Below, piece by piece: positions 5,076-57,583 of a DNA stretch of 64,000 bases (the stretch's first letter is position 1; every line of letters starts with the position of its first letter). The DNA is from a virus. The position numbers and the translations under genes were made by a program. Below the pieces are notes generated by a model. The model did not search any database. It was not told the origin of the DNA and saw nothing but the letters and a program-made list of their open reading frames with translations. The stretch covers positions 88,209-152,208 of the IMG/VR virus record IMGVR_UViG_3300049845_000291; one strand, given 5' to 3'.

Positions 5076-5555
5076 TTATTTATCGCCTTCAGCAGGTGTA
5101 CGGGTGTCCAGCACCCAAAGAGTGCTGTCAGGAAGGTAGCGTGAGATCAGGGCGCTGACAACCTGCCAGTCAGCGCCGCCCAGGCCGCAGCCGATTAGTG
5201 GGTGATGGCAATCAGCAGAGGTAAGGCTCAAACCTTGCAGCTGCCAGGCCAGGGTGGCAAGTGCTTCATCGAGGGCGTCGTACGACGTGTACCGACGCTT
5301 CTCGCGGCCGTAATACCGCTGACCGAACAGGTTCGCCACGTAAAGATCGGGAGTTACCTTCAAGACCTGAACCAGACCAAGCAGCTCATGGTCTGAAAAG
5401 AGCTTGCAGCGCTCCTCGTACCGCTCCCAGACAATGGGGTACTTGGCGCGCAGCTCCTTTGCAATCCCGGAGGCCATGACTCCCTGGCAGTTCACCTGGT
5501 GCATGATGACGCCTTTGGTGACGCCTGTAACGAGATTGCCGTTCACGATCTTCAT
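5076..5555 (-). CDS. Macrodomain ADP-ribose hydrolase (DarG/TARG1/T4 Tk.4-like)
   Basis: MKIVNGNL, HQVNCQGVMASGIAK, VANLFGQ and PLIGCGLGGADW motifs. Confidence 0.85.
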   Translation of the reverse strand: MKIVNGNLVTGVTKGVIMHQVNCQGVMASGIAKELRAKYPIVWERYEERCKLFSDHELLGLVQVLKVTPDLYVANLFGQRYYGREKRRYTSYDALDEALATLAWQLQGLSLTSADCHHPLIGCGLGGADWQVVSALISRYLPDSTLWVLDTRTPAEGDK

Positions 5556-5642
5556 GGCGACGACCGGTGCATCCGGTCTCCTTGGTGGTTGGTACTGTGT
5601 CGGTAGCGATTCGGTGTCACCGGCGTCGTCTGGTGTCGTCGG

Positions 5643-6092
5643 TCAGGCGTCTGCATATTCCTTGGAGATTGACAGGAACTCGATTCGATCGAGCTCCCGC
5701 TGCAGCCGCTCCTCGGTCTTGACCGCGCGCTTCATGATCCTGAGCAAGGCGTACGCCAGGTCACGGTACTCGTGCCCAAGGTACTCGTGCGCCACGCTGC
5801 CGTCGCCTTTCCAGGACAAGCAGTAATCGATGACCTGCTCAATCAACAGGTGCTTGTCGGCGATGTTCTCGATCTTCGGTTCGTCAACAGCCCTGAGCGC
5901 CCGCTCATCGGCAACTCGCTTCGCGACTTCCTTGGAGAACAGCTCGTTCTCATGACAGCGTGAAAACGAGAACTTCAGGGTCTCATCGCCGTTGCGCTCA
6001 AACCGAAGACACACGCCGCCCTTTGGGTCAGTTTCGATCTCACAACGCTCAAGGTTCAGTCGAACAGGTCGTACATACCGATAGAAGATCAT
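5643..6092 (-). CDS. Hypothetical protein (149 aa)
   Basis: ORF in operon context with typical codon usage. Confidence 0.65.
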   Translation of the reverse strand: MIFYRYVRPVRLNLERCEIETDPKGGVCLRFERNGDETLKFSFSRCHENELFSKEVAKRVADERALRAVDEPKIENIADKHLLIEQVIDYCLSWKGDGSVAHEYLGHEYRDLAYALLRIMKRAVKTEERLQRELDRIEFLSISKEYADA

Positions 6093-6093
6093 G

Positions 6094-7026
6094 TCAAGCT
6101 GCCATTTCAGCCTTGATGGGCGGGTGGGGGTTGTAGTTCAGGACGTTGAAGTTCGCTGTCGTGAACTGGTCGAAACGCGGCACGTCGCCATTGATCTCAA
6201 TGATCGGCGGAACTCGGGTCGTCCTCCTAAGCTGCTCACGCACTTGATCAAAGTGATTGTGGTAAATGTGCGTGTCGCCCAGCACCATAATCAACCGATC
6301 AGCGATGCAGCCCGTCGTGTACGCCAACATGTACGTCAACAGGGCGTACGACGCGATGTTGAATGGCAGCCCGAGGAACGAGTCCACTGAGCGCTGGTAC
6401 ATCTGGCACGACAGCCGACGATCAGAGGTCACGAAGAACTGCGCGAACATGTGGCACGGTGGCAAGGCCATCTGGTCGAGCTCACCTGGGTTCCAGGCGC
6501 TAAGCACGATTCGGCGGTCCGTTGGGTTGTTCACAAGCTTGTCGGCGACCTGCTGCAGCTGATCGATCTGTGACTTCAGGACCTTCGCCCCGAAGTACGT
6601 CGTGCTGCCATCATCATGCGTCAGGTAGTCCTCGTACCCGTGAAGGCGGAAACTTTGCCAGTTCCGCCACTGCACACCGTACACGCGCCCCAGATCACCT
6701 TTGAAGGCCGGTTTGAAGCTCGAGCCAGAGGTGTGCTCAGCGTTCGGAGACCAGATCGTCTTCTTCTCTGGATCACGCGTCCCATGAAGCAGCTCAGCAA
6801 GGCGACGTTCGTCACCACTGCCCTCGATGAACCAAAGCAGCTCGGTCAGCACGGCCTTGAATGGCACTCGCTTCGTGGTTGCCAGCGGCAACATGCCGCC
6901 CAGCAGCTCAATCTCCAGGCGCTCACCGAACAGCGCCCTGGTTCCAACACCAGTCCGATCCATGCGGTCATCACCATGACGTAGGATCTTGTCGTACAAC
7001 GCAAGCAGTTGATCTTCCCAGAACAT
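6094..7026 (-). CDS. thyA: Thymidylate synthase (canonical, dUMP-specific)
   Basis: DRTGVGT, ELLWF, LGRVYGVQWR, MALPPCH, YQRSVDSFLGLPFNIASY (Asn specificity residue), GDTHIY. Confidence 0.95.
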   Translation of the reverse strand: MFWEDQLLALYDKILRHGDDRMDRTGVGTRALFGERLEIELLGGMLPLATTKRVPFKAVLTELLWFIEGSGDERRLAELLHGTRDPEKKTIWSPNAEHTSGSSFKPAFKGDLGRVYGVQWRNWQSFRLHGYEDYLTHDDGSTTYFGAKVLKSQIDQLQQVADKLVNNPTDRRIVLSAWNPGELDQMALPPCHMFAQFFVTSDRRLSCQMYQRSVDSFLGLPFNIASYALLTYMLAYTTGCIADRLIMVLGDTHIYHNHFDQVREQLRRTTRVPPIIEINGDVPRFDQFTTANFNVLNYNPHPPIKAEMAA

Positions 7027-7544
7027 TATTCGATCCTCTTAATATTGGAGATTGGGACCTCGGTGACCAACCAGACCCCGTTGTCGGCTTGATAGAACGG
7101 ACACAACATGGACCTTGTGCTGATCTCAAGCAGCACCAGATCGCGTTTACGTCGGCCCCCGACGGCCCGTGCGTCGTCTTGGTTCTCTGAGAGATGGACG
7201 TGATGCCGCCTCATGCTCCGCAGTCCCTGCTTTTGGATGGTCTCCCAGGCCTGGTCATTGGTGCCATGGAAGAGCACAGGCGGCGGGGTCTTGATCGCGT
7301 ACTTGACGCGCACCAGAGGTGTGCTGTGCCCTTGTACTGCCCGGATCTTCGTTCGATCCGCGTTCAGCGCGTACCGCTGCTTGTCGTCCTGCTCAACGAT
7401 CTGCAGGATCTCGTCCAACTGCAGCGCGGTGTTTTGCAGAAGCTGCTCGATCGACACCCAACCCTGGGTGTCGATCGAGAGGTTTGCGGCTTCGGGCTTG
7501 TGCCGCAGCAGGTACGACAGGTACTTTGACGACTCGGTAAGCAT
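7026..7544 (-). CDS. kptA: NAD-dependent RNA 2'-phosphotransferase (KptA/Tpt1)
   Basis: SKYLSYLLRH, DKQRY, IRAVQGHS, LFHGT, RHHVHLS and NGVWL motifs. Confidence 0.92.
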   Translation of the reverse strand: MLTESSKYLSYLLRHKPEAANLSIDTQGWVSIEQLLQNTALQLDEILQIVEQDDKQRYALNADRTKIRAVQGHSTPLVRVKYAIKTPPPVLFHGTNDQAWETIQKQGLRSMRRHHVHLSENQDDARAVGGRRKRDLVLLEISTRSMLCPFYQADNGVWLVTEVPISNIKRIE

Positions 7545-7550
7545 GCGCCG

Positions 7551-7559
7551 ATTTTAGCA
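7551..7559 (-). promoter_or_regulatory. Extended -10 promoter TGcTAAAAT, 6 nt upstream of the kptA ATG (leaderless)
   Basis: TGn-TAAAAT-cggcgc-ATG with no SD in between. Confidence 0.55.
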
Positions 7560-7590
7560 TCGCGCTGCTTTCCGAGCCCCAACGATTGGG

Positions 7591-8127
7591 TTATGTCATT
7601 GGATCGGCTAGCTGATCTGCTAAGCGAAGCAGTTGGATGGCCGTTCCGACGATGCCTTCCGCCACCGTGGTCATGCGCAGGTCGTCGAAGCTTTCACGGT
7701 TACCGGCGACGTTCAGCACACCGATCTTGGAGGCCACAACGAAGGTGGCAAGCTCACGTGCAGACTTGTCGACGAGGCCGGACCACACGGTCCCGCCCGT
7801 AGAGTTCTTCAGATGCTCGGAAACGTCGATCACCAGCACGGGCTTGTTCGCGCGCCTGCACTGGTTCACGGTCAAGACCGAGCCCGGCGATGAGAGCTTC
7901 CACGAGATCAGGACCGTACCGTCGGAATCCGCGATGTTCCGGATCGTACGAGAGCGCAGGTCACCGCTTGCTTTCAGGTTCAGGAGTTGCAGCAGCGGAT
8001 TCGGCCCCTTTGCCGTCTGGAACCCATCCGGTGCGGTGCCGCCGGTCGGCACGCTTTCCTTGAAGGCCGCGATCAAGCCGCCCTGGTCCGCGCCGGTCTG
8101 CCCGCCGCTGATGATCTTGCGAAGCAT
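7591..8127 (-). CDS. SLOG-superfamily protein (putative molybdenum-carrier/YpsA-like)
   Basis: KIISGGQTGADQGGL, RTIRNIADSDGT, GSxLT and LNVAGNRES motifs. Confidence 0.8.
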   Translation of the reverse strand: MLRKIISGGQTGADQGGLIAAFKESVPTGGTAPDGFQTAKGPNPLLQLLNLKASGDLRSRTIRNIADSDGTVLISWKLSSPGSVLTVNQCRRANKPVLVIDVSEHLKNSTGGTVWSGLVDKSARELATFVVASKIGVLNVAGNRESFDDLRMTTVAEGIVGTAIQLLRLADQLADPMT

Positions 8128-8136
8128 GAGATGCCC

Positions 8137-8973
8137 TTAGGTGTTTGACCTGGTGGCATTATACAGCTCTTCAACCTTCTTGGGATCAATTTCTGTAACG
8201 GGCTGGAAGCGTGGCACGAGTCGCAGATACAGATCTCCACGGCCGGCTGTGGAGTCGCGGTTCCAGTTCCAGTACCCTCGGCCGGCGACCTTCAGGCGCT
8301 GCGTTCGGTACTCGAACGCGCTTGGCACGCGAACCTCGAGCTCCTTGTCGAGGAAGTCCTTGACCTTGATCCAAGAACCAACCATCATGTCGATCGCGTT
8401 GACCTCGACTGGCAGCTCAAGATCGCCGCTGTAGAACATGCCGTTTGGGCTGCCCATCATGCGGAACTCAAAGGGCTCGGTCCGAATGCCGATCCGGACG
8501 ATGATACGACGAACGCGATCACCATCTGGGATTTGGTCCTCGTACGCCACCCCATGTGGCAGTCCCTGTCGAACATTGTACGACACGCTGCGCCCGTTGA
8601 TGTTGATCGGAACACTGCAGCCCTCGTACGCCATCTTGAGCGTCAGCCCAAGGGTCACGGTAGGAGTGAACTCTTGGCGGTGCGCCTCATGGAAGGCCCG
8701 CAGGATCTCGTCGATCTCGCTTGGGCTGCCAGCAAACGACCATGACCCATGTGGCCCACGTTGTGGTCCTCGCTGTGCGCGATCCGCTGCACCGCTGGTG
8801 ATCTGCTCGTACGCCTCGCTGATCTGCTTGAACTTGACCTCGGCAGCGGCCTTCTCAGCCGCGTCTGTGAACTTGTCAGGATGGTGCTTCTGTGCAGCGC
8901 GACGATAAGCTTTCTTGATGTCCTCTTCGCTGTCGCCGCGCTTGACGCCAAGGACTTCGTATGGATCAGTCAA
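8137..8973 (-). CDS. DnaJ/CbpA-like co-chaperone
   Basis: J-domain DPYEVLGV...KAYR...HPDK...FKQISEAY; C-terminal DnaJ_C-like GRGDLY. Confidence 0.9.
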
Positions 8974-15225: not shown

Positions 15226-16044
15226 CTAGGACGATGTCACCAGGTCTTTGACACGACTCGGCGCCCACCACACGGTTCGACCGTGCCGGTCGGAGTACGA
15301 CTCCACCGGCTCGCCGTAGTGCCCACGCTGTTGGCCGTAGCACACGTTCCGGTACGAGGCGCCGTTGATCAACGGATGGCGGTCCTCGAGTGCCGAGTGG
15401 CTCAGGTCGTACAGCGCACACCAGATCTTGACGCGCTCGGTGCCAGTGATGCTTGTTGCGGCCCGGCGCGGATCGATCTGAGCCATGTACAGTCCATCGG
15501 CCCGCAGGTAGTTCCCACAGCCGGCGGCAATCCGCTGGTCGAGCAGCGCCTCGGCGATGGTCACGTTCTTGCCGAACCGGTTCAGCCGTTCCTCGAACTG
15601 CGGGATGCACAGCTGAAGCTGTTCTGCCGGGGTCATGATGTCCGGCCCGAGCTCGTTCAGCTTGCGCTTCGCCTCAGCGAGGGACACGACCTTGAACGTG
15701 CCAAAGTTCCGCGGGTCACAGAAGCACAGGAACTGCGGGCTGCCCTCGAGCTCGAGCTCGATCCGCAGGTGCTGCAGCGAGTTCGTGTGCTCCAGGTACC
15801 ACCAGCCCGTCATGCCGAGGGTGCTGAGCACCGCGAAGCGCTCGTTCCCCTTCATGAAGTACAGCACGATCAGCTTGCCCTTGACCTTGATGCGCTCCAG
15901 GAAAGCGCCCTCGATGTTCGAGATCTCGGGGATGGGGGCGCGCATGTACCGACCGCTCTTGATCGACACACGCTTCACAGTGCGGCCAATGACCGGTTGC
16001 ACGTGAGTTCGTGCCACGTGCAGCACCTCAGGTCCTTCGGGCAT
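15226..16044 (-). CDS. Fpg/Nei DNA glycosylase-AP lyase with zinc-less finger
   Basis: MPEGPEV N-terminus, KGK, LGMTG, DPRNFG, LGPD, H2TH LLDQRIAAGCGNYLR, GRTVWWAP without four Cys. Confidence 0.92.
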   Translation of the reverse strand: MPEGPEVLHVARTHVQPVIGRTVKRVSIKSGRYMRAPIPEISNIEGAFLERIKVKGKLIVLYFMKGNERFAVLSTLGMTGWWYLEHTNSLQHLRIELELEGSPQFLCFCDPRNFGTFKVVSLAEAKRKLNELGPDIMTPAEQLQLCIPQFEERLNRFGKNVTIAEALLDQRIAAGCGNYLRADGLYMAQIDPRRAATSITGTERVKIWCALYDLSHSALEDRHPLINGASYRNVCYGQQRGHYGEPVESYSDRHGRTVWWAPSRVKDLVTSS

Positions 16045-16082
16045 GGGATCTTCCAGGTTCTTGATGAGCTCGAGAAATTCGG

Positions 16083-16304
16083 TCATATGAGGTACCACAG
16101 GGTGTCGGCGGCCGCGACCAACAGGCCAAGAACTCCCAGGGTCAGCATCACGTTTCGGAGGAAATCTGAACTTTGGTCCCCGCCAAAGATGGTCTCGTGG
16201 CTTTTCACGTGTGTACGGTGCGCGAAGAACGCGATGCCAAAGCACATGAGCGGCCAGATCCAGGATGCCAGGACCTTGATGAGCTCGTGGTCGATGTCCA
16301 TCAC
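16083..16304 (-). CDS. Small membrane protein
   Basis: Two hydrophobic stretches; coupled ORF. Confidence 0.55.
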   Translation of the reverse strand: MMDIDHELIKVLASWIWPLMCFGIAFFAHRTHVKSHETIFGGDQSSDFLRNVMLTLGVLGLLVAAADTLWYLI

Positions 16305-16931: not shown

Positions 16932-18557
16932 TCACGTGGTGTACTGTGTGTCTGAGAACACCTCGTTCGGCGTCAAGCCCTGCAACAGGAGCTGACCAAT
17001 GGACAACCCGTGGTAGTGCGCCGCCACTGACTTCACTGGATCGTTCTTGATGTACTGCGCCAAGCCGATCCAGATCACCGCCAGCCAGAGGTAATGCACC
17101 TCGGTGAAGCGCTCCATGAGCAAAGCACAGCCGCCCAAATCCGGCTTGGGGATCTTGAACTTCATCCCCCAGCTCGCACCGTGAACGCCATTGTGGTCCA
17201 GATGGAACTCACGCGAGTAGTTGAACAGGTCGTACCCGCTGAGCGCGTACGCCAGCTTTGCGATGTCGTACTCTGGTACGCCGTACGTCTTGGTCTGACC
17301 AAAGTACCCGCGTGGATCGATCAGCGTGATCTCCAGCGTGTCGGGATCGATCATGCTGTTCGACATCTGCAGGTCACCATGGATCATGCTCATGGTGTTG
17401 ACGCCTTGGTAGTGCTTGGCGAGCTTCTCATACAGCCCGTTAATGATCTCCAGCGGAGACATGCGTAGGTACAGTCCATTGACGTTCTGAACCGGGCCGA
17501 AGGCATCGATGACGCCAGCAATCTCACGGTACCGATTCAGGAGCTTCTCATGCGCCTCGATCTTGACATCACGCTGCACGATCTCGGTGGTGAACTCTTC
17601 CTTGATGCTGTGCAGCCTATCTGCTTGGTCAAAAAGGCGGCGCAGCACGAGGCGTCTGTTCTCAGCATCAAGGGTCCCCCAGTGCTGCCAGACTGGGACA
17701 CCTTTGACCTTGCTCATCACGAACGAGTCGCGGTCCATCGACACCCAGACCTTTGGCCGGCGGACCAATGTCCGCCGACGGTCGAGTTCCTCGTACCACG
17801 CGATCTCTTTCTTGATGAGCTGCTCGCCTTGGGTGTTCAACGCGCGCTTGAGCACCAGGTCTCCATGGATCTCAACCGAGTTGAACGAACGAGCGGCGTC
17901 GGCCGTTGAGCGAACGCGCTCAAGCTTTGGCTTGTCACCCCAGTCAATGATCGACGGCATGGGGAGCTGGAACACACCGTCCTTGGAGTACTGTGTAAGC
18001 AGCTCGACAAAGTCTTGGCCCTTGGTGTACGGCTTCGGGTGGTACTCAGCCACCGCGTACACACCGAAAAGCCCGCCACGACCGTCCTCTCGCAGCACTG
18101 GGACCTTGTGCTTGACACCGGGTCGATCAGCAAGATCGTATCGGTTTGGGTGATCGTAGTTCGTGAACGCGACGGCCTCGTGCCCAACAAGATCCTCTGG
18201 GCGGAAGTGCTCACCAGGCAGCACATCACACCAGGTGAAGAGCACTGGACTGCCTTCAAGATGCTGGCATGAGCTGAAGATCGCGTGCGCCGAGCCATGC
18301 GCGCCATCGACTGTCACAACATGAAAGGGCAGCTCTGGTTGCGACGCCCCAAAGTACATGTTGTAGTACTCGCGGACCAGCGTCCGGTAGCTGGAGTGCA
18401 CGATCACCGTGATTGAACTGGCGTACTGCGTCCAGTACTCGATCTGCTTGACAAAGCCAGTTTCCTTCCCGATGTTCACGAAGAACTTTGGGATGTGGTT
18501 CGTGAGGGGAGCAAGGCGGCTTCCAAGCCCGCCGGCGACGATGACGACGTTCATCAT
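16932..18557 (-). CDS. Sugar-phosphate nucleotidyltransferase fused to an APH/choline-kinase-like phosphotransferase
   Basis: N-terminal VVIVAGGLGSRLxPLT..IPK, TWCD, DWGD; C-terminal IHGDLxxSNxM..LIDPRG..YDIAKL. Confidence 0.88.
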   Translation of the reverse strand: MMNVVIVAGGLGSRLAPLTNHIPKFFVNIGKETGFVKQIEYWTQYASSITVIVHSSYRTLVREYYNMYFGASQPELPFHVVTVDGAHGSAHAIFSSCQHLEGSPVLFTWCDVLPGEHFRPEDLVGHEAVAFTNYDHPNRYDLADRPGVKHKVPVLREDGRGGLFGVYAVAEYHPKPYTKGQDFVELLTQYSKDGVFQLPMPSIIDWGDKPKLERVRSTADAARSFNSVEIHGDLVLKRALNTQGEQLIKKEIAWYEELDRRRTLVRRPKVWVSMDRDSFVMSKVKGVPVWQHWGTLDAENRRLVLRRLFDQADRLHSIKEEFTTEIVQRDVKIEAHEKLLNRYREIAGVIDAFGPVQNVNGLYLRMSPLEIINGLYEKLAKHYQGVNTMSMIHGDLQMSNSMIDPDTLEITLIDPRGYFGQTKTYGVPEYDIAKLAYALSGYDLFNYSREFHLDHNGVHGASWGMKFKIPKPDLGGCALLMERFTEVHYLWLAVIWIGLAQYIKNDPVKSVAAHYHGLSIGQLLLQGLTPNEVFSDTQYTT

Positions 18558-19177
18558 GCCACCCCACTTTCGGCCTTGAGCATCGCCCCAAGGGCACCGT
18601 CAGGGTGCAGCTTGAGGAAGTCCATGCGCTGGAAGTTCAGCCCATGCGAAACTTGGACCGCAATGCAGTCCAAGATGCACAGCAACGCGGTGGTGCTGGT
18701 AGTGGGAGCCAGCCCGTGCTCATCGCCCTCGACGACCGCTCCGATGCACAGCTCGCGGTGCACATGCGGATTTCGAGGCTTTGTTGGCTTGCAGTGAATC
18801 AGGATCTGCTTGACGTTCGGTCGAATGACCGTCACGTGCTGGATCGTCTCTAGCATCTCTCGAGTTGTGCCAGAACGCGAGATGTGGATAATCAGATCCT
18901 CATGCCCGATATGACCGTAATCTCCGTGTCCGGTATGGGCGGTGTTTAGGTACAGAGACGGGATACCTAGGCTCGCCATGGTTTCGCTGATTTTGGCAGC
19001 GATGTTGGCGTTCTTGCCAACACCCGTGATGATCACACGAGCTCGATATTCTTTACGGGCCGTCTCGAGGACGTCTTGAACAATTGCTTCGTATTCTGCT
19101 GAAGCAACGACAGGCTTCAGCGCCAAGAGCGCTGAAGCCTGTCGTTCAATGTTTGTAAGAGCTAGACTGTTACCCAT
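18554..19177 (-). CDS. SIS-domain arabinose-5-phosphate isomerase (KpsF/GutQ/KdsD-like, no CBS domains)
   Basis: VIITGVGK..IAAK, HGDYG, ISRSGTTRE, LAPTTSTTA, D.IAV, F...HPDGALG. Confidence 0.88.
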   Translation of the reverse strand: MGNSLALTNIERQASALLALKPVVASAEYEAIVQDVLETARKEYRARVIITGVGKNANIAAKISETMASLGIPSLYLNTAHTGHGDYGHIGHEDLIIHISRSGTTREMLETIQHVTVIRPNVKQILIHCKPTKPRNPHVHRELCIGAVVEGDEHGLAPTTSTTALLCILDCIAVQVSHGLNFQRMDFLKLHPDGALGAMLKAESGVA

Positions 19178-19179
19178 GT

Positions 19180-19200
19180 TGCCTCCTAATCTAGGAGGCA
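19180..19200 (-). promoter_or_regulatory. Hairpin sequestering the Shine-Dalgarno of the isomerase gene
   Basis: Minus strand reads TGCCTCCTA-gat-TAGGAGGCA-acATG. Confidence 0.7.
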
Positions 19201-19211
19201 ATTGTAACCGA
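19201..19211 (-). promoter_or_regulatory. Promoter core TCGGTTACAAT
   Basis: -10-like TACAAT; TTGATA 16 nt upstream; identical 11-mer at 39451-39461. Confidence 0.6.
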
Positions 19212-29457: not shown

Positions 29458-30129
29458 TTACGAGAGCACGATGTACTTTGCGGTCTTGTCGCCTCGAGCC
29501 AGCAGCGCGGCGAAGCGGTGGTACCCGTCAATCAGACGCGGCGAGCCGTCAGGGCGGCGGTGAACAACGCCGACGGGAATTCCCGCCGCGAACTCGTACT
29601 GCGTGCCGCGTTTGGCGCGCATGTACTCATCATTCCCCACGAGCCCATCGAGTGCCAGTTCTTCGATCTCGACGTTCTTGCACTCGTTGATCACGTCGAG
29701 CACGAAGGAGTACTCAGCCTCCAGGACCTTGCGGATCTTTTGGAGGTCGCTCTCCAGGTTCAAGATCTCGTTGATTGCTGGCAACAGGTCGTGTGCACCC
29801 TCAAAGGTGATGTCGTCGATCTCTTCGCCGTAGTACCCACCCGTCACGGAGATGGAGAACTTTTCTGGCTCGTACGCCTTGTGCAGACGGAGCAGACGGT
29901 CGATGCAGTACATCTCAATCGTGCTGGCCGTGTCATGCACGAAACGGAGGCGCTTTCCTCCAGTCTGCTTTTGGACCTCGATCAGCCCCTCAAGATTTAC
30001 TGAGGTGGTGCGCAGGTTCTCGTACCGACCACAGCGACAGATCGAGTCACAACCAGCTTCTTCGCAGTTCGTCACGTACTCATAGTCGTACTCGACCGCG
30101 TACCGGGCCTGAAGGGACGCCAACCTCAT
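29458..30129 (-). CDS. Protein with C-terminal ParB/Srx-like domain and N-terminal Cys cluster
   Basis: PVGVV...LIDGYHRFAA; CEEAGCDSICRC. Confidence 0.65.
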   Translation of the reverse strand: MRLASLQARYAVEYDYEYVTNCEEAGCDSICRCGRYENLRTTSVNLEGLIEVQKQTGGKRLRFVHDTASTIEMYCIDRLLRLHKAYEPEKFSISVTGGYYGEEIDDITFEGAHDLLPAINEILNLESDLQKIRKVLEAEYSFVLDVINECKNVEIEELALDGLVGNDEYMRAKRGTQYEFAAGIPVGVVHRRPDGSPRLIDGYHRFAALLARGDKTAKYIVLS

Positions 30130-30605
30130 CGAATTCCCCTTGGATGCAGCATGATGGCCTTGATTCGCTCGATGCCAAGATCAAGATCATCAAAGAGCTC
30201 CAGATGTTGGAACATCGAGCACAGCACCTGGACATTCCCGCGCCGCCAAAAGCCAGGTGGGCAGACCACCACCGTCCGTACCCCAACGCCAGCCAGAAGC
30301 CCAAGCTCCAGCAGTGAGATCGGTGATTGGGTGCCAGGCTGCAAGTACATCAGCACTGCCGTGCTGGTGCGAATGTAGTCCAGCTCCCACCGCACCTGGG
30401 TCTCAAACTCCTTGTTTGTGATGTCTTGGACCCATGACGCGTTCCACACCGGCCGGCGAGGATTCAAGACCGTGCAGTCAAGATCTGCTAGCTCGCTGAT
30501 GACGCGTGCTTGCCAGTCTACAGCTAGGCCCTGTTCAATCGAACCGGCCAAGAACACAGCCGGCGGCGACACCGCGCCGCGCTCTGGAGCGACTAGGACC
30601 TTCAT
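30126..30605 (-). CDS. Nucleoside 2-deoxyribosyltransferase-like / nucleotide N-glycosidase
   Basis: VFLAGSI...DWQ, NPRR, QVRWEL, SPISLLELG, FWRRGNV. Confidence 0.85.
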   Translation of the reverse strand: MKVLVAPERGAVSPPAVFLAGSIEQGLAVDWQARVISELADLDCTVLNPRRPVWNASWVQDITNKEFETQVRWELDYIRTSTAVLMYLQPGTQSPISLLELGLLAGVGVRTVVVCPPGFWRRGNVQVLCSMFQHLELFDDLDLGIERIKAIMLHPRGIR

Positions 30606-32290: not shown

Positions 32291-32550
32291 CAGTCGTACT
32301 CGTGCAGCTCTTCATCTTCGTCGTCGCCACCGCGCATCGCGCTCTTGATCTCGGCATCAGACATCGGCTGGAAGCCAACGACGGTGCCGCAATCTAGGCA
32401 GATCTCCATGTCAATGTAGTCACCGCCACAGACACCAGTGATGTCAGGCGGATAGTCGTCGCGCTCGAGCCGCAGGTGCGGCACAGACGTGAAGCACAGG
32501 TCGTTGACCTTGCCGTTGATGCTCAGAACTCGGGTGTGGTTGCAGGCCAT
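32290..32550 (-). CDS. Small Cys-containing hypothetical protein
   Basis: C.H...GGDY....ICLDCG. Confidence 0.6.
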   Translation of the reverse strand: MACNHTRVLSINGKVNDLCFTSVPHLRLERDDYPPDITGVCGGDYIDMEICLDCGTVVGFQPMSDAEIKSAMRGGDDEDEELHEYD

Positions 32551-33668
32551 TTGAAGGTGCTCAGGGTGTTGACGAAGTTCTCGCAGAACTGAACTGGATC
32601 CCAGCCAAGGGCCAGCCGCTGTTCCTCGATGATGGTTTGACGGGTCTCCGGCGAGCTCTTGATCAACCGTAGCAGGTCAACCAGCATCGCCTGGTCCCTG
32701 ACGTACAGATACTCATGCGCCGCGGTGCCTTTCGGGTAGATCCGTCGGCTCTTGTCGATGTTGGCGTCGATGAACACGATGTTCCCAGCGGCGATGCACT
32801 CGGCAACGCGCTGTGGAATCAGATCGAGGCTCTCGTACGATGGGTCACCAGTCACCAGATGCGCCAGCGCGCCTTGCATCTTTGGCAGTACGTCGCCGTA
32901 CTTCACCATACCAGTGAACTGCGGGTACCGCTTGACAGGAAGCTTGCCGATCTTCGGATGCTTCTCGAAGTCGGTCTCGTCGATCTTACCGAAGATCTCA
33001 ACGCTGATGTCGTCTGGCAGACCACAGTACCACTTGTACAGGTTTGGGATGCGCCGGCCGCCGCGTGCGGTTCCGCCGTACATCAGGTCAACGGTGGGGT
33101 GCTCAGCAGGCGGCAGCCACGGGTTGAGCAGCGGGAATCGATCCATTGGGTAGTGCACGATCTGCCCAAGGGGGACGCCTTTCTTTGGCCAGTCCGCCTT
33201 CACGGCGAGCAGCGCGTACGGTTGCGAGACCAAGTGGATCGGCTTCTGGATCAGGATCTCGTCTTTGGTGTACTTCGTGCCCCACGGCTTCTTCTCGACG
33301 TTCTCCCAGATCTGAACGAACGGCAGCTCCGGATCACACATCAAGTACACCACCGGGCCAGTGAACGTGTTGATCAGCCGGTAGTTCGCGATCTGCTCGG
33401 CGTCCTCAGCGCCACCGAAGAAGTTCACGTTCCCGTTGATGACGCACAACACATCCAGCTGCTGCAGCACCGATGGATCTGTCTCCATGATCTGGTGCCA
33501 GTGCAGGCTCTCGTGCAGAGTGTCCTTCTTCAGGATTTTGGTGAACACGTGCACCTCAGCGCCACCATTTCGCAGGGCCTTGCAGATGCTGATGGCCTCA
33601 CCCGAGGTCACTGAGTTGTCAAGGTCCCACAGAATGCGGGCACCCAGCTTCAAAACACCGATCTTCAT
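32523..33668 (-). CDS. DNA glycosyltransferase homologous to T4 beta-glucosyltransferase (BGT)
   Basis: Colinear with T4 BGT as I recall it: INGNVNFFGG~VNSSINFFGG, YLMCDPELP~YLFTDIRLP, WENVEKKPW~WPNVKNRPW, YGGTARGGRR~YGGSFRSGQR, QRVAE~LRVWE. Confidence 0.88.
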   Translation of the reverse strand: MKIGVLKLGARILWDLDNSVTSGEAISICKALRNGGAEVHVFTKILKKDTLHESLHWHQIMETDPSVLQQLDVLCVINGNVNFFGGAEDAEQIANYRLINTFTGPVVYLMCDPELPFVQIWENVEKKPWGTKYTKDEILIQKPIHLVSQPYALLAVKADWPKKGVPLGQIVHYPMDRFPLLNPWLPPAEHPTVDLMYGGTARGGRRIPNLYKWYCGLPDDISVEIFGKIDETDFEKHPKIGKLPVKRYPQFTGMVKYGDVLPKMQGALAHLVTGDPSYESLDLIPQRVAECIAAGNIVFIDANIDKSRRIYPKGTAAHEYLYVRDQAMLVDLLRLIKSSPETRQTIIEEQRLALGWDPVQFCENFVNTLSTFKWPATTPEF

Positions 33669-34561: not shown

Positions 34562-35722
34562 TCAGAAGCCGATTTTCCTGGTACGACGCTGCACGCTGAC
34601 GCGCTGACCGAAGATCTCAGCCAACGTGAACTCCGAGCCATCACGCAGGTCGATGCCAACGTCCGACGCCACGTTCAAGGCCTCAGCGCGAGTCATTGGC
34701 CGGAACTCGACCACATCGAAGCAACGACCCGGACGCATGAGCGCCTCGTCGATGTCACGGATCGACGGCAGGTTCGTGCTGAACACGAGCTTCTTGCCTT
34801 CAGCGCTGATCAGACCATCAGACACGTTCAGGAACCGGTGCATCATCGTGTTCCCATCAGTGCGCGCCTTGAGGAACGTGTCTGCGTCCTCCATGATCAT
34901 GAACCTGGTATCGCTCTCGATGAAGTTCGCGAAGATCCCGTCGCTGTTCATGACGCGCTCATCGTACGTGACCTTGGCATCGCCACCTGAGCGGTGGATC
35001 AGGTTCTTGATGAAGGTCGTCTTGCCGGTGCCAGGCGGGCCGATCAAGATCAGCACACTGGCCGAGCTGTTCAGGTACTCGTCGATGTACTCGGGCAGCG
35101 GCTTCGGCAGCCACGGGTACGCCGAGTTGATCGCCGGGCGGAAGTTCAGCGGCACGTTGATGCTGTTTCCGCGCTCGTTGTACACCCACTCGATCAGGTT
35201 CTCGGCACGCTTGTACATGCCGTCCATGCGCTCAACGAAGGCCTTGACCTCCTTTGGGTCGCCGTTGAGCTCCAGATCAAGCTTGCCACGCTGCAGGGCA
35301 GCCTCAACCATGCCCCAAGGGAACAGCATGACCGCACGGTTTGGCGAGAAGAAGTTGTACCGCTCCGTCAGGTCGGTGACCCAGTCACGAAGCTGGATCG
35401 TGACATCGATCATCCATGTACCCTCTTGCGCCAAGGTGTTACGGTTGTTCTCGAGCGAGCTCCGCATGAACGAGGAAGCCAGCCACTCATCCGGACCGTA
35501 CGCGCCAAAGATCACGCCGGTGTCGATGTTGTTTTCATTCATGAGATGTGCATCATCCATGCAGGTGTCAAGATGGTCTCTATTGATCAGAGGACGTTCA
35601 CGTTTGATTCGACGACGGCGCTTATCAACGCGTCTGACAGCCTGTAAACCTGTGGTTTTAGTGCTTCGCCTGATTCGACCGAGATCAACTGGGTCGAGGT
35701 CGATGTCATCATCGTCATCCAT
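34562..35722 (-). CDS. AAA+ ATPase (probably leaderless)
   Basis: GPPGTGKT, IMEDAD, FLNVSDG, STN, DEALMRPGRCF; TACAAT-6nt-ATG. Confidence 0.9.
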   Translation of the reverse strand: MDDDDDIDLDPVDLGRIRRSTKTTGLQAVRRVDKRRRRIKRERPLINRDHLDTCMDDAHLMNENNIDTGVIFGAYGPDEWLASSFMRSSLENNRNTLAQEGTWMIDVTIQLRDWVTDLTERYNFFSPNRAVMLFPWGMVEAALQRGKLDLELNGDPKEVKAFVERMDGMYKRAENLIEWVYNERGNSINVPLNFRPAINSAYPWLPKPLPEYIDEYLNSSASVLILIGPPGTGKTTFIKNLIHRSGGDAKVTYDERVMNSDGIFANFIESDTRFMIMEDADTFLKARTDGNTMMHRFLNVSDGLISAEGKKLVFSTNLPSIRDIDEALMRPGRCFDVVEFRPMTRAEALNVASDVGIDLRDGSEFTLAEIFGQRVSVQRRTRKIGF

Positions 35723-39424: not shown

Positions 39425-39450
39425 GGTGATACCTCATGAGATTTTTGTCA

Positions 39451-39461
39451 ATTGTAACCGA
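39451..39461 (-). promoter_or_regulatory. Promoter core TCGGTTACAAT
   Basis: Identical to 19201-19211; GAGG SD downstream. Confidence 0.6.
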
Positions 39462-55800: not shown

Positions 55801-56977
55801 ACAGGTTACGGCCGGTGCCTTCTCTGGTTCTGGCGCTTCGCTGACGTCTCTGAACGCGTCGAACCTTGGATCTGGTACGGTACCAGATGCACGGATCTCT
55901 GGTGCGTACTCGGGTATCACGACGTTGACGCTGACCTCTGGCTTGATCCTCCCAGATGGATCGGCCGCGACCCCCGCGATCCGATTCACCAATGACACTG
56001 ACACTGGTATCTGGCTTGGTGCTGTTGGTGACATGCGCTTCTCAGTTGGCGGGTCAGCTCGGATGACGATGACGGCTACCGAGATCTCAACGGCTAACGG
56101 AGCCGCATGGACCGGTAACGGCTCTGGCCTGGCGAACCTGAATGCGTCGAACTTGACATCTGGCACTATCCCAGATGCACGGATCTCTGGTGCGTACACT
56201 GGTATCACGACCCTTTCTATCACCAGCAACCTGACAGTTCAGCCAAGTACCACGACGCATGGGTACACGCAGATCGTTCCCGGTAACGCCACTAACTCTG
56301 GCTACATCGCCTTCCATGCCTTCACTTCAGGGGTTCGTCAGGGCTACATCGGGTATTCAGCTACGAACTCGACACTGGACGCCGGCACCATCCCATATGT
56401 TGCAGGAACGCACGCCTTTACCGGCACGATCAGCGGCAACGGCTCAGGTCTTACCACCTTGAACGCGTCGAACTTATCATCGGGAACAGTCCCAGATGCA
56501 CGGATCTCTGGTGCGTACTCGGGTATCACGACGTTGACGCTGACCTCTGGCTTGATCCTCCCAGATGGCACAAGTGGAACGCCAGCTATTCGCTTCACGT
56601 CTGACACGAACTGCGGTATCTATCGACACACCACCGACACAGTCGGTGTGAACACCGCGTTGTACGTGAACGGCGAAATCACGGCGTTCTCTGATCGTCG
56701 TGTTAAGACGAACGTCGAGTCGGTGCCAGATGCGCTGCTTAAGGTGCAGGCTATCCGAGGCGTCACATACGAGCGGACCGACCTGGAAGATGGCAAGCGC
56801 TACGCTGGTGTGATTGCTCAAGAAGTTGAGCAGGTCTTGCCAGAGGTTGTCCGCACTGGTGATGATGGCATGAAGTCCGTGAACTACGACGGTCTGTCTG
56901 CCCTGTTGATCGAGGCTATCAAGGAGCTGTCCGACAAGGTCAAGGCCCTTGAAGCCAAACTTGCAAAGTACGAGTAA
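46889..56977 (+). CDS. Giant fibre protein (3362 aa) with S74 chaperone
   Basis: Three tandem units of about 370 aa (ASKQYVD, GDRVLVK.Q, QNG.Y); many LNASNL..GTV..AR repeats; AFSDRRVK. Confidence 0.9.
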   Translation: MATNRSFVAKNGLDNNGNPITGAGTVGSSLQVSGAHALTFTLAGPTTVSLPTSGTLVTSTQISALSTATSANTPNTIVQRDGSGNFSAGTVTLTGLTTSALSVSTSGIPLFSHPTAIQLELREGDQTLPAGRWRFTVDGDILSVRHNTAVAGDFTTYVSPISFSSTNNVTIPNNLLVSGTITGTLSGNASTATALQTGRTFSVSGDATGTSTAFTGTADATIPVTLATVNSNVGSFGTASQVSTFTVNAKGLITAASNTNIAIAAGAVTSGTFADARIAASNVTQHQAALTIAETQITDGALLARNAGNETISGTWTFSNNVTVPLVPTADSHAASKQYVDNMAAGVAPQESVRAATTAAITLSGTQTVDGVALIAGDRVLVKDQGTASQNGIYVVAAGAWTRATDFDGSPTNEVTQGDLIFVELGTVNANTSWVLLTANPITVGTSALNFSIFSRSADLNAGNGLTRSGNTINVVTASTARIVVNADNIDLATAGTAGTYRSVTTDAYGRVTAGTNPTTLSGYGITDAQPLDADLTAIAGLVGTSGLLRKVGTDSWSLDTATYLTGNQSISLTGDATGTGATSIAVTLANTAVTPASYGSATQVGTFTVDSKGRLTAASNTTIAIPTSAVTSGTFANARIAASNVTQHQAALTIAETQITDGALLARVGDDETISGNWAFSNNVTVPLVPTALAHAASKQYVDNSLQGLQSKPSVRAATTANLTATYSNGSAGVGATLTGTGTLPTIDGVTLTTGDGVLVKNQTASLQNGRYNVTTVSPNWVLTRCGLCDENDEIPGAYIFVTDGSTLKNTGWVLSVASPSTFVVGTDAITVVQFSGAGEYTAGAGLALFGNTFSVGTASAARIVVNADTIDLATVGTAGTYRSVTTDAYGRVTAGTNPTTLSGYGITDAQPLDADLTSIAGLAGTSGLLRKTAANTWSLDTNTYITGNETITLSGDVTGSGSTAITATLANTAVTAGSYGTASQVPTITVDSKGRLTAASNTAIAIAATAVTSGTFNNARIAASNVTQHQAALTILESQITDGTVLARNAGDEAISGNWTFNNNVAVPLVPTADGHAASKQYVDNAITGLDMKQSVHAATTANITLSGTQTVDGVALIAGDRVLVKNQTTASQNGIYVVSAGSWTRSIDADDAAEVTSGLYVFVEEGTANGDTGWVLSTNDPITIGTTALTFVQFSGLGQVTAGAGMTKTGNTLDVGTASTARIVVNADNIDLATVTDGGGGSFLKFTRDTYGRVTGTSAVVAADINSLVSTTYVTRSADTMTGALGVVAGTAGAPGLYIVGDTNTGINQATGADTLAISTGGTNRLVVNSIGTAINASGNAATRVQFELGGNQLLTGSAGSYIGIGAYWDTGWKNSVTGNGGIVIRNESGGTMQFMTGDSTEVAGTVIPGFTTRMAINGAGQVSISSAAASTSTATGALTVAGGVGVGGAIYAASFNGPLTGNVTGNVTGTVSGNAGSATVLQTTRTFNLSGVTTGGAQNFNGSQNVVINVTAVPTSLLTGVIADAQISGAYSGITNLSMSGNLTITSSSASQIFMNSPTVQGAYQFTQVGGLNRWVWGANSTAETGSNAGSNFFIQRYTDAGAIIDVPLSITRSSGQVVIPNGSGIAQLNASNLSSGTVADARLSSNVALLNATQTFTGQKTFNQALLMGSTTLFNINGSTPGGQINGLYVADLGGTVGTTNNPTFTAAIAGQIDSSRSVAVSVDGAGNLWGFRSHSSAGTYVWNSKVVNADQLTTARTIALSGAATGTATSFNGSANITIPVTALNASNLTTGTVPTARLGTGTADSTTYLRGDGTWAAGIAGVTSITIAGSNGIGVSNPTITSTGTVTLSLGDITPTTVRVPDGTVALPSITFASDLDTGIYRSGTNILAFTTGGTQAMTLDASGNTNIIGRLGVLDGTPNTSVVANLAGTFTANAGRYGIQNLVTLTNEALTTDRTSFGAFNRIETQVQNGVAFSLNIEGARNLAQTSAAGGNSIDGEGALIGATNYALHQTADVTFTRMENVYGAQNLAIVSGATAIGDNTYGSVNTAQASGAGSIITTAMGVRSRVIASNATSSITTGHLFYGDMSATGTITNRYGLYIATAINNYVAGGFQIAGTAATGTNTHGLGVGIAPSGTTGTIRTSSQIFTYASDTVSAPGYSWDGDPNTGMFRPAEDILAFTAGGTETMRLEPTQVLIGATTGQVTAGTDSRVQIHGLTNALSSLSIARHNADASGALLYLGKSRATSVGGITAVVANDILGNIIWAGGDNAAMSSGATIRAVATQTWSTTARGTALELQTTADSTTTQVTRLQVLQTGQITMPANIAATSTTTGTLVVTGGVGVSGTIHAGAFDGDLTGNATTATTLQTTRSIGLSGVTATAQNFNGSANITIPITAVPASLLTGTIADARISGSYTGLTNLTGTGTVDFSRFIGNGADSASAPSFSWTGDLDTGIYTPAANQVAVSTGNSQAALFTSSRVTVTPLLQASNGVAMGSAVNPVYEINLDFGSDVAGTWRKIIGATLQDTQFSTHGFVIEIEDPGSNIASANTVNSIERERFYVAMVRAESTTLNTPDACYVTGPSNRIRAIKTAIGTYEVQIQNDSQFREYRVSISTYASNGSHTITYFDGTAGGTATGTYAATVGTATEWFQQVKLASTTASSSTTTGALTVAGGVGVAGQVTAATFSGSGAALTSLNASNLSSGTVPNARISGSYDGIDVLTANDFIAASGGVALRMKDSTGATGVATLVYSDGADFYFLLTNSGDANGTWNTLRPFRFSKTTGLVQMAHGLTVTGTVTGTTFSGSGASLTSLNASNLSTGTVGTARLGSGTANSTTFLRGDGTWAVPTASGDLTPTSVTSSGSIIGTTNLIARGGGTGAEGGQLVLGYGNNLATAITGQANNTWNLDVVTSDFRIFRLNSAGTALTAVQISEAGSAAFQGNIASTTTGTGTIVVTGGVGVSGQVTAGAFSGSGASLTSLNASNLGSGTVPDARISGAYSGITTLTLTSGLILPDGSAATPAIRFTNDTDTGIWLGAVGDMRFSVGGSARMTMTATEISTANGAAWTGNGSGLANLNASNLTSGTIPDARISGAYTGITTLSITSNLTVQPSTTTHGYTQIVPGNATNSGYIAFHAFTSGVRQGYIGYSATNSTLDAGTIPYVAGTHAFTGTISGNGSGLTTLNASNLSSGTVPDARISGAYSGITTLTLTSGLILPDGTSGTPAIRFTSDTNCGIYRHTTDTVGVNTALYVNGEITAFSDRRVKTNVESVPDALLKVQAIRGVTYERTDLEDGKRYAGVIAQEVEQVLPEVVRTGDDGMKSVNYDGLSALLIEAIKELSDKVKALEAKLAKYE
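47560..50660 (+). repeat. Three tandem ~1.1-kb diverged repeat units within the giant fibre gene (boundaries approximate)
   Basis: ARIAASNVTQHQAALTI and HAASKQYVDN each occur three times. Confidence 0.8.
55883..56568 (+). repeat. Identical 77-bp direct repeat (55883-55959 and 56492-56568)
   Basis: ccagatgcacggatctctggtgcgtactcgggtatcacgacgttgacgctgacctctggcttgatcctcccagatgg occurs twice. Confidence 0.85.
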
Positions 56978-56980
56978 GCC

Positions 56981-57583
56981 ATGCCAGTACCAACCACAAA
57001 CGTGACCTTCAGCTCAATTCAGACTGAGTTTGGGGGTTCCAATCCGATCTCCATCAGTGAGTACTACCGAGGTGGGGCTTTGGTGCCAGCCGGCACTGCC
57101 ACCTCGGCAACTGACGGAACCCCCATTTCAACCTCGGGGTTGATTCGAGTTGGGATGTTTAGAGGAACCAGTGCGGCCCCAACGGGCATGATTCCAAGCT
57201 CTTATGGCACTATCTTCCACAACACCATCTCACCAGTCAATGCTTTTGCAGCACTTAGATTCAACTCGAGTGGGCAGGCCTTTGAGTTGATTGGGGCATC
57301 TCCTGCGGTGGCTGCCCCAAACTGGTATGAACCCACAACCACCGGAATCGGAAACTCGTACTGGATCAGGATACGTCGGGTCAGTGGGTCCGCAACAGGT
57401 TACGTTGGGGCCACCGTAAACACCTGGCTGCAGATGAGCAGCACTCGTGAGATTGGGCATCTTATCGATGGCCCCTCAGATTTCATTACGGCACTTTACG
57501 AGATTGATTTTTCCACATCATCCGGTGGCACGCCTATCGTCGGGGTATCTGACGTTGAGATCAACGTGATCAAGGAGTTCTAA
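56981..57583 (+). CDS. Fibre-tip/adhesin-like protein
   Basis: N-terminal IQTEFGGSNPISISEYYRGG module; directly follows an S74 fibre. Confidence 0.65.
   Translation: MPVPTTNVTFSSIQTEFGGSNPISISEYYRGGALVPAGTATSATDGTPISTSGLIRVGMFRGTSAAPTGMIPSSYGTIFHNTISPVNAFAALRFNSSGQAFELIGASPAVAAPNWYEPTTTGIGNSYWIRIRRVSGSATGYVGATVNTWLQMSSTREIGHLIDGPSDFITALYEIDFSTSSGGTPIVGVSDVEINVIKEF

Follow-up and report, generated by a model that had tools for sequence, protein, structure and literature searches.

A T4 beta-glucosyltransferase-family gene accompanied by arabinose-nucleotide genes in an uncultured jumbo phage: a candidate arabinosyltransferase of 5-hydroxymethylcytosine

The final 64 kb (hereafter, the window) of the 152-kb IMG/VR record IMGVR_UViG_3300049845_000291, the completeness of which is 43%, contains a gene (positions 32523–33668, minus strand) related to that of the beta-glucosyltransferase (BGT) of phage T4. 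The encoded protein is a full-length member of the BGT/GT63 family, as shown jointly by its sequence, its profile matches, its fold and its active-site residues, and it is very probably a glycosyltransferase acting on 5-hydroxymethylcytosine (5hmC) in DNA. Genes resembling those for the synthesis of uridine diphosphate (UDP)-arabinose are located in the same region of the phage genome. The complete proposal, namely, that the gene product is a functional inverting enzyme of the GT-B fold and the BGT family, which modifies 5hmC of the phage DNA with UDP-arabinose made by the phage itself, is one for which we regard the chances as evenly balanced.

Family membership, fold and active site

An earlier note on this DNA, made from the letters alone, had described a catalytically intact BGT homolog aligning with T4 BGT along its full length, and this description was supported at the levels of sequence, profile and fold. 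The open reading frame (ORF) had exactly the predicted boundaries and strand and encoded 381 aa. The protein matched the Pfam family PF09198 (T4-Gluco-transf) with 91.9 bits (cut-off 27) and the beta-glucosyltransferase family phrog_7922 with an E-value of 3.9e-49 (residues 1–351), while in the HMMER alignment with T4 BGT (PDB 1bgt; E = 1.8e-34) its residues 1–350 corresponded to residues 1–327 of the T4 enzyme. The AlphaFold2 model built on the family alignment had a predicted local distance difference test (pLDDT) of 95.9 and a predicted template modelling (TM) score (pTM) of 0.92, and its two-Rossmann-domain GT-B fold was superimposed on T4 BGT. The comparison with BGT structures suggested in the earlier note recovered the T4 BGT fold: the top six Foldseek matches in PDB were all T4 BGT (TM = 0.80–0.88), and the next fold was that of PimA (TM = 0.50). 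The matches included 1nzd and 1j39, the D100A/UDP-glucose entries of T4 BGT.

Six residues of T4 BGT act in catalysis or UDP binding, namely, Asp100 as the catalytic base together with Glu22, as well as Arg191, Arg195, Arg269 and Glu272, which bind UDP. All six, predicted to be retained, were indeed present in both the HMMER and MAFFT alignments: E22 corresponded to E24 (TSGE), D100 to D112 (MCD), R191/R195 to R202/R206 (TARGGRR), and R269/E272 to R287/E290 (QRVAE). In an alignment of 80 sequences of the family, R206 and R287 were invariant, and E24, D112, R202 and E290 were conserved in at least 90% of sequences.

Acceptor base

The window encodes two members of the thymidylate synthase (TS) family, namely, a canonical ThyA (6094–7026) and a divergent homolog located 5 kb from the BGT gene (Table 1). 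The closest solved structures for the divergent homolog were those of the cytidine monophosphate (CMP) hydroxymethylase MilA (5b6d, E = 2.5e-24) and T4 gp42 (1b49, E = 2e-15). The two possible products of such enzymes can be told apart by sequence. The DNA of phages RB69 and DLP3 carries arabosyl-5-hydroxycytosine, and the synthases of 5-hydroxy-deoxycytidine monophosphate (5hodCMP) are TS homologs with Asn at the position equivalent to residue 169 of Escherichia coli ThyA, whereas hydroxymethylases keep Asp, a distinction that has been tested experimentally (Lee et al., NAR 2026; PMC13326640). In addition, enzymes specific for cytosine are recognised by N177D, and those with a product other than methyl by L143D/E (PMC13326640).

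The divergent TS homolog was aligned using MAFFT with the ThyA of the same phage, T4 gp42, RB69 gp48 and DLP3 gp80. Its motif NMRSNDIILGFTND combined D169 with N177D and was nearly identical to that of T4 gp42 (NMRSNDVVFGFRND); L143D (D-V-P-C) was also found, as were E58, W80, Y94 and C146, and the W80 and NSNYG segments were retained. In the proven hydroxylases, RB69 gp48 and DLP3 gp80, the corresponding sequence is HMRSQN...QLD, and the W80 loop is missing. The score of the homolog was 76 bits against T4 gp42 and 45 bits against RB69 gp48. The L143D/D169/N177D combination was found in the TS homologs of all 33 BGT-linked loci, which fell into three sub-types including that of the phage under study, and D169N occurred in none of them. 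BGT-family genes are consistently paired with synthases of the hydroxymethylcytosine type. Since the TS homolog keeps the hydroxymethylase signature and lacks D169N, the acceptor is most likely 5hmC in DNA, an assignment that we hold with high confidence.

It should be noted that in sister jumbo clades (loci L023–L036 versus L008 and L016–L021), the same BGT module is accompanied by TS-family hydroxymethylases of different kinds. These sub-types are T4 gp42-like (45–61% identity to gp42, ~220–290 aa) and MilA-like (~330–367 aa, with a C-terminal extension of ~85 aa), and the difference between them represents a replacement of the TS gene within a conserved BGT module.

5-Hydroxycytosine (5hoC), which the earlier note had listed beside 5hmC as a substrate to be assayed, was not borne out as the acceptor, since the linked TS homolog is of the D169 hydroxymethylase type. 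According to this alternative, the long MilA-like TS homolog would be a hydroxylase despite D169, and the system would be a BGT version of the arabinosyl-5hoC pathway of RB69 and DLP3. Consistent with it, the clade has the longer TS homolog where its sister clade has a T4 gp42-like enzyme, an exchange that went together with the gain of the arabinose genes; MilA is the best solved relative here, as it is for RB69 gp48 and DLP3 gp80 (PMC13326640); and the D169N rule has been tested in one direction only. However, MilA is itself a hydroxymethylase, the D169, W80, NSNYG and NMRSND..GF.ND motifs of T4 gp42 are all kept, the proven hydroxylases have QN and no W80 loop in their place, the bit scores favor gp42, and the same signature is shared by all BGT-linked TS homologs. 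On the strength of the D169 diagnostic and the comparison of motifs, the 5hoC acceptor was rejected; it is retained as a rival of low probability. As to another route to 5hmC, a search for Tet/JBP dioxygenases gave no match, which is weak evidence, as the control likewise gave none.

Arabinose pathway genes and their distribution

Two genes with a bearing on the sugar donor lie 9–14 kb from the BGT gene, on the same strand and in the same nucleotide/DNA-modification region (Table 1). The first encodes an arabinose-5-phosphate isomerase consisting of the SIS domain only, with a probable ATG at 19177 preceded by an AGGAGG ribosome-binding site; its product was 52% identical to RB69 gp55 over the full length (E = 6e-64). 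The second encodes a 541-aa fusion of a nucleotidyltransferase and a kinase, for which tblastn yielded matches in DLP3, RB69 and other phages (coverage 96%, identity 32–36%, E ~ 1e-66). It was 34% identical to DLP3 gp82 over the full length (E = 2e-73) and is a homolog of RB69 gp52:53 and of AfhE of phage HY126, an enzyme type shown to make UDP-arabinose (PMC13326640). Judged by these homologies, the phage has counterparts of two of the three enzymes that serve UDP-arabinose synthesis in RB69 and DLP3.

The isomerase and TS-like genes are both preceded by the 13-mer TCGGTTACAATTG, of which the window contains exactly these two copies; for its 9-mer core, two copies were reached in none of 100 shuffles. 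The GTTACAAT box precedes the isomerase and TS-like genes in relatives too.

In a search of 23 whole records bearing a BGT gene, the isomerase and AfhE-type genes were found in exactly those five in which BGT was at least 56% identical to the protein under study and in none of the other 18; both genes were also present in the 38-kb contig behind locus L016, the BGT of which falls within the same sub-clade. Complete genomes lacking them included G007 (368 kb), G008 (343 kb), G010 (345 kb) and that of Ralstonia phage RsoM2USA. In the BGT tree, the arabinose-positive records formed one monophyletic clade, which held the gene under study. Of the five cultured phages sampled from both match lists, none had BGT together with the AfhE-type gene, and no paper describing their combination was found in the literature.

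An AfhE-like gene was also observed in the 227-kb jumbo phage PTm5 of Tenacibaculum (AP019525.1, 121024–123962; locus L118), followed by genes for a histidine phosphatase and for a TS-family protein annotated as pyrimidine hydroxymethylase; no BGT homolog was found in PTm5. For this phage, an arabinose-type modification of the DNA involving a phosphatase outside the HAD family is probable.

Candidate transferases and the sugar donor

The GT4-like arabinosyltransferases of RB69 and DLP3 (RB69 gp46:47; DLP3 gp76, gp77 and gp79), with RB69 gp3 not among the queries, gave no BLAST or HMMER match in this record or in the complete relative G003 (342,591 bp, with terminal repeats), and neither did the thymidylate kinases (Tmk) gp45 and gp78 of these phages. 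The Glycos_transf_1 and Glyco_trans_1_4 profiles detected one weak GT-B protein per genome, which was not clade-specific, and a GT2 protein was found in G004 only. The weak second GT-B (Glyco_trans_1_4-like, 357 aa; G003 positions 237597–238667, equivalent to L106:17597–18667, minus strand) had homologs in G001, G004, G005, G007, G009, G010 and RsoM2USA (56155–57102), that is, in both arabinose and non-arabinose relatives, and it contained internal stops in G004 and G005, two of the four clade genomes, where the arabinose genes were intact. This protein may be a DNA glycosyltransferase of a second step, now in decay in the arabinose clade, or else have no connection with DNA. No glycosyltransferase other than the BGT homolog is at once intact, present throughout and correlated with the arabinose pathway, and hence UDP-arabinose made by the phage is the likeliest donor candidate, in which our confidence is evenly divided.

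Substitutions were read from a MAFFT alignment of 57 BGT homologs. The loop before Glu24 and the GDPSYESLDL segment had been noted earlier as differing from T4 BGT, and this was confirmed, with V20, T273, S277 and L281 being specific to the sub-clade. In the arabinose sub-clade, the loop preceding Glu24 changed from TSGGxGE to AV(A/G)PGE or SVTSGE, the Tyr or Leu at position −2 of the catalytic Asp was replaced by Met (residue 110), and the sequence K-R-x-K-K after Arg206 became R-R-I-P-N, in which P208 and N209 are clade-specific. The site equivalent to T4 I256, which adjoins the invariant G-D...Y segment of the family, was occupied by Thr in the sub-clade, whereas Ile was present in T4 and in all 32 other homologs. 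Altered constrained columns numbered 4 of 60 in the arabinose-clade BGTs versus 1 of 75 in the sister-clade control. These clade-specific replacements beside functional motifs are evidence for a retuned site; taken as a whole, the case for arabinose as the donor is of moderate strength. We tentatively suggest, with slightly less than even confidence, that the sub-clade switched its donor from UDP-glucose to phage-made UDP-arabinofuranose through a few substitutions (I256T, the Glu22 loop and Met at −2). The suggestion that the donor may be a different one, made in the earlier note, gained circumstantial support from the presence of the isomerase and AfhE-type genes, from their confinement to this BGT sub-clade and from the lack of an RB69/DLP3-type arabinosyltransferase in a complete clade genome.

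The strongest alternative is that the protein is an ordinary beta-glucosyltransferase, which, like that of T4, transfers glucose from host UDP-glucose in beta linkage to 5hmC of duplex DNA, while arabinose is used by an unrecognised transferase or for a purpose other than DNA, for example, as a second sugar on glucosyl-5hmC or in the glycosylation of the virion or the host envelope. We consider this a real possibility, the probability of which falls distinctly short of even. The non-arabinose relatives, with BGTs 39–49% identical, presumably use UDP-glucose, and the transferases of the known arabinose phages are GT4-like, not BGT-like (PMC13326640). The second weak GT-B of the clade genomes belongs to the same broad superfamily as the RB69 and DLP3 arabinosyltransferases; however, its presence in non-arabinose relatives and its stops in G004 and G005 argue against such a role, as does the lack of an RB69/DLP3 arabinosyltransferase homolog in complete G003. 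The position of the sugar operon near the BGT gene and the upstream box it has in common with the TS-like gene also speak against a glucose donor.

Several further observations weigh against the complete proposal. In the arabinose-clade BGTs, 56 of the 60 constrained columns are intact, including Glu24, Asp112, the NGNVNFFGG loop and all known catalytic and UDP-binding residues, which would fit an unchanged glucose donor equally well. The identity of BGT between clades drops from ~60% to 45%, which is comparable to its neighbors (helicase, from ~70% to 47%); that is, BGT has no excess of change relative to the adjacent genes. The co-occurrence of the arabinose genes with this BGT type goes back to one evolutionary change within one lineage and is not statistically independent, and the same branch also changed the type of the TS-like gene and several neighboring genes (AAA ATPase, UDG-like ORF and nucleoside 2-deoxyribosyltransferase-like gene). 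The GTTACAAT box may be a general promoter type of the phage. For the 5-phosphatase of the third step (AfhF/HAD; RB69 gp51, DLP3 gp81), neither tblastn nor HMMER gave a match in this record or the complete genome G003, and the clade likewise yielded no histidine phosphatase of the kind that follows the AfhE-like gene in PTm5; this step may be performed by a host enzyme or an unrecognised one. Finally, neither a homolog of the T4 gp56 deoxycytidine triphosphatase (dCTPase) nor a member of the MazG family was found in the clade genomes, and this search likewise yielded no homolog of the nucleoside triphosphate pyrophosphatase of RsoM2USA. A dCTPase may nonetheless have escaped detection.

The lack of a dCTPase would also fit a role of the protein outside DNA modification, as a decayed or repurposed copy or an enzyme for another hydroxyl-bearing substrate, which is highly improbable in view of the full length, the high-confidence BGT fold with all key residues, the strong conservation over more than 200 homologs, and the association of the gene with a nucleotide kinase and with a TS homolog of cytosine specificity.

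According to the proposed pathway with arabinose as the donor, the TS homolog would be the source of 5-hydroxymethyl-dCMP (5hmdCMP), which the Tmk/YorR-like kinase translationally coupled to BGT, together with host or other phage kinases, would convert to the triphosphate for incorporation into DNA by the polymerase. Meanwhile, the isomerase would convert ribulose-5-phosphate to arabinose-5-phosphate, and the AfhE-type enzyme, acting as kinase and nucleotidyltransferase, would yield nucleoside diphosphate (NDP)-arabinose. After replication, the BGT homolog would flip out 5hmC and transfer the sugar from the UDP-sugar to the hydroxymethyl group with Asp112 as the catalytic base; with UDP-arabinose, the predicted product is beta-arabinosyl-5hmC.

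Gene neighborhood

Table 1. Features of the window related to the BGT-family gene and the arabinose pathway.
Feature	Coordinates	Strand	Basis or position
BGT-family (GT63) DNA glycosyltransferase gene, 381 aa	32523..33668	-	Pfam, phrog, PDB, fold, residue conservation
YorR/thymidylate-kinase-like P-loop nucleotide kinase, 199 aa	33668..34267	-	Ortholog profile against PDB; Atlas clusters
Guanylate-kinase-like kinase, 225 aa	31101..31778	-	Pfam Guanylate_kin, 48 bits; phrog_1815
UDG-superfamily-like ORF, 160 aa	31808-32290	-	Nearest Atlas clusters/structures; immediately downstream of BGT
Nucleoside 2-deoxyribosyltransferase-like protein	30126-30605	-	PF15891, 103 bits
AAA ATPase (phrog_14322)	34562-35722	-	Between helicase and Tmk-like kinase
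Divergent thymidylate-synthase-family enzyme, 335 aa	38417..39424	-	PF00303, 86 bits; dCMP 5-hydroxymethylase signature
Promoter-like box TCGGTTACAATTG, identical copy	39449..39461	-	~24 nt upstream of TS-like gene start
Arabinose-5-phosphate isomerase (KpsF/KdsD/GutQ, SIS domain only)	18554..19177	-	Pfam SIS; NCBIfam kpsF, 102 bits/KdsD
Promoter-like box TCGGTTACAATTG	19199..19211	-	~22 nt upstream of isomerase start
Sugar-1-phosphate nucleotidyltransferase (N-terminal) + APH-type kinase (C-terminal), 541 aa	16932..18557	-	Pfam NTP_transferase + APH

The BGT gene belongs to a conserved module composed of the TS-like gene, a helicase, the Tmk-like kinase, BGT and the guanylate-kinase-like gene, and the gene order was identical in complete G003. 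The stop codon of the 199-aa kinase and the start codon of BGT overlap by 1 nt. A phmmer search of PDB with the 199-aa ORF gave no match, whereas a profile of 23 orthologs matched YorR (2axp/3kb2, E = 2.9e-4) and then thymidylate kinases; the nearest Atlas clusters, according to a protein-language and structure look-up, were viral Thymidylate_kin. A Tmk-like kinase was located directly upstream of BGT in all seven arabinose-clade loci and in 14 of the 18 other loci, while the frequencies of the guanylate-kinase-like gene near BGT were 7/7 and 11/18, respectively. In DLP3, RB69 and RL38J1, a similar nucleotide kinase, with YorR and Tmk as the best structural matches, stands beside the first glycosyltransferase and the TS homolog (PMC13326640). 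We infer that the 199-aa protein is the kinase for modified dCMP.

Other neighbors differed between the clades. The AAA ATPase insertion was found in 7/7 arabinose-clade loci and 0/18 others. The 160-aa ORF resembling the uracil-DNA glycosylase (UDG) superfamily had no Pfam or PDB sequence match (phmmer included) and was detected in the 10-kb flanks of five of the seven arabinose-clade loci and, as a weak match, in one of the 18 others; it would tie a UDG-fold protein to a glycosylated-cytosine module. The nucleoside 2-deoxyribosyltransferase (NDT)-like gene was observed near BGT in 5/7 and 0/18 loci, respectively, and viral NDT–Tmk fusion proteins are present in Atlas. This protein might serve as a nucleotide-pool hydrolase replacing the dCTPase; MilB, the partner of MilA, belongs to the same superfamily.

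Just downstream of the sugar operon (15226–16245, minus strand), an Fpg/Nei-type DNA glycosylase was identified (Fapy_DNA_glyco and H2TH domains, with an N-terminal extension of ~67 aa). Beside ThyA, within 5076–8973 on the minus strand, there are genes for a Tpt1/KptA RNA 2'-phosphotransferase (7026–7544), a circularly permuted YpsA SLOG protein (7591–8127), a weakly matching macro domain (5076–5555) and DnaJ (8137–8973); this cluster looks NAD/ADP-ribose-related.

Distribution of the family and significance

The GC content of the window was 54–62%, and the closest relatives of the record were 310–343 kb in size, which bears out the earlier description of a GC-rich large phage. Megablast of 8 kb against GenBank phages gave no match, and all knowledge of the phage comes from metagenomes. 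Among cultured phages, the closest BGT homolog (41% identity) was encoded by the Ralstonia jumbo phage RsoM2USA (344 kb), in which it is ORF2; this ORF has been listed as a beta glucosyl transferase according to BLAST, without further analysis (PMC8504454). Given this precedent, the occurrence of a BGT homolog in a jumbo phage of high GC content is in itself no novelty. The BGT loci in IMG/VR were collected with an alignment query, as a single-protein query gave one locus only. The family comprised 219 clusters at 50% identity among 1.84 billion representatives, and many members were located on contigs of 230–370 kb; thus, the narrow distribution claimed for BGT holds in a relative sense, whereas the family reaches well beyond the T-even phages. 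A full BGT-family gene (PF09198, E = 4e-63) was also observed in the 85-kb Enterococcus phages nattely, vipetofem and VFW; in nattely (MT119360.1, 32432–33490; locus L117), it is annotated as hypothetical, and it extends BGT homologs to phages of Gram-positive hosts.

T4 BGT is the standard reagent of epigenomics for tagging 5hmC and a model for the disguise of phage DNA from restriction enzymes, CRISPR and DNA glycosylases, and members of its family recur throughout a large group of uncultured phages of ~340 kb, always in company with a 5hmC-type synthase and a Tmk-like kinase. Genes for UDP-arabinose have until now been known only with 5hoC and GT4-type transferases; here, they were acquired by one BGT sub-clade. 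If arabinose is the donor, the system would add a base to those known in DNA, represent a naturally occurring change of donor in an enzyme of well-understood structure and offer a candidate orthogonal tool for 5hmC labeling; if, moreover, a few substitutions account for the switch, the donor specificity of BGT would be engineerable. Beta-arabinosyl-5hmC was once claimed for RB69, a claim since revised to arabinosyl-5-hydroxycytosine, so that its presence here would make it an undocumented base. If glucose is the donor, the attachment of arabinose still requires an unrecognised transferase, which would also be worth finding.

Comparison with known systems

The protein shares with T4 BGT homology over the full length (28% identity), the two-domain GT-B fold, the catalytic Asp/Glu pair and the UDP-binding Arg/Arg/Arg/Glu set. 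In both phages, the BGT gene is linked to a cytosine-specific hydroxymethylase of the TS family, b-gt of T4 being adjacent to gene 42. This protein differs from T4 BGT in its ~30 additional residues, in the altered sequence of the loop ahead of Glu24 and in having Thr in place of Ile256. In contrast to the T-even pathway, the ~340-kb GC-rich jumbo phage is also predicted to make NDP-arabinose, a Tmk-like kinase and not a deoxynucleoside monophosphate kinase of the gp1 type is coupled to BGT, and no gp56-type dCTPase was found.

With the pathway of RB69, DLP3 and HY126, the phage has in common the isomerase, the AfhE-type fusion, a TS homolog acting on dCMP and a Tmk/YorR-like kinase (located there beside the first transferase). 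The differences from RB69 and DLP3 consist in D169 being kept (D169N in those phages), in the transferase being of the BGT family (GT4-like in those phages) and in the AfhF HAD phosphatase not being found. RsoM2USA and the metagenomic relatives are likewise GC-rich jumbo phages with the TS-like/Tmk-like/BGT module in the genome end region, whereas RsoM2USA, G007, G008 and G010 lack the isomerase and AfhE-type genes, fall outside this BGT sub-clade and carry other TS sub-types. Thus, the system resembles both the glucosyl-5hmC pathway of the T-even phages and the arabosyl-5hoC pathway of RB69 and DLP3 and is identical to neither.

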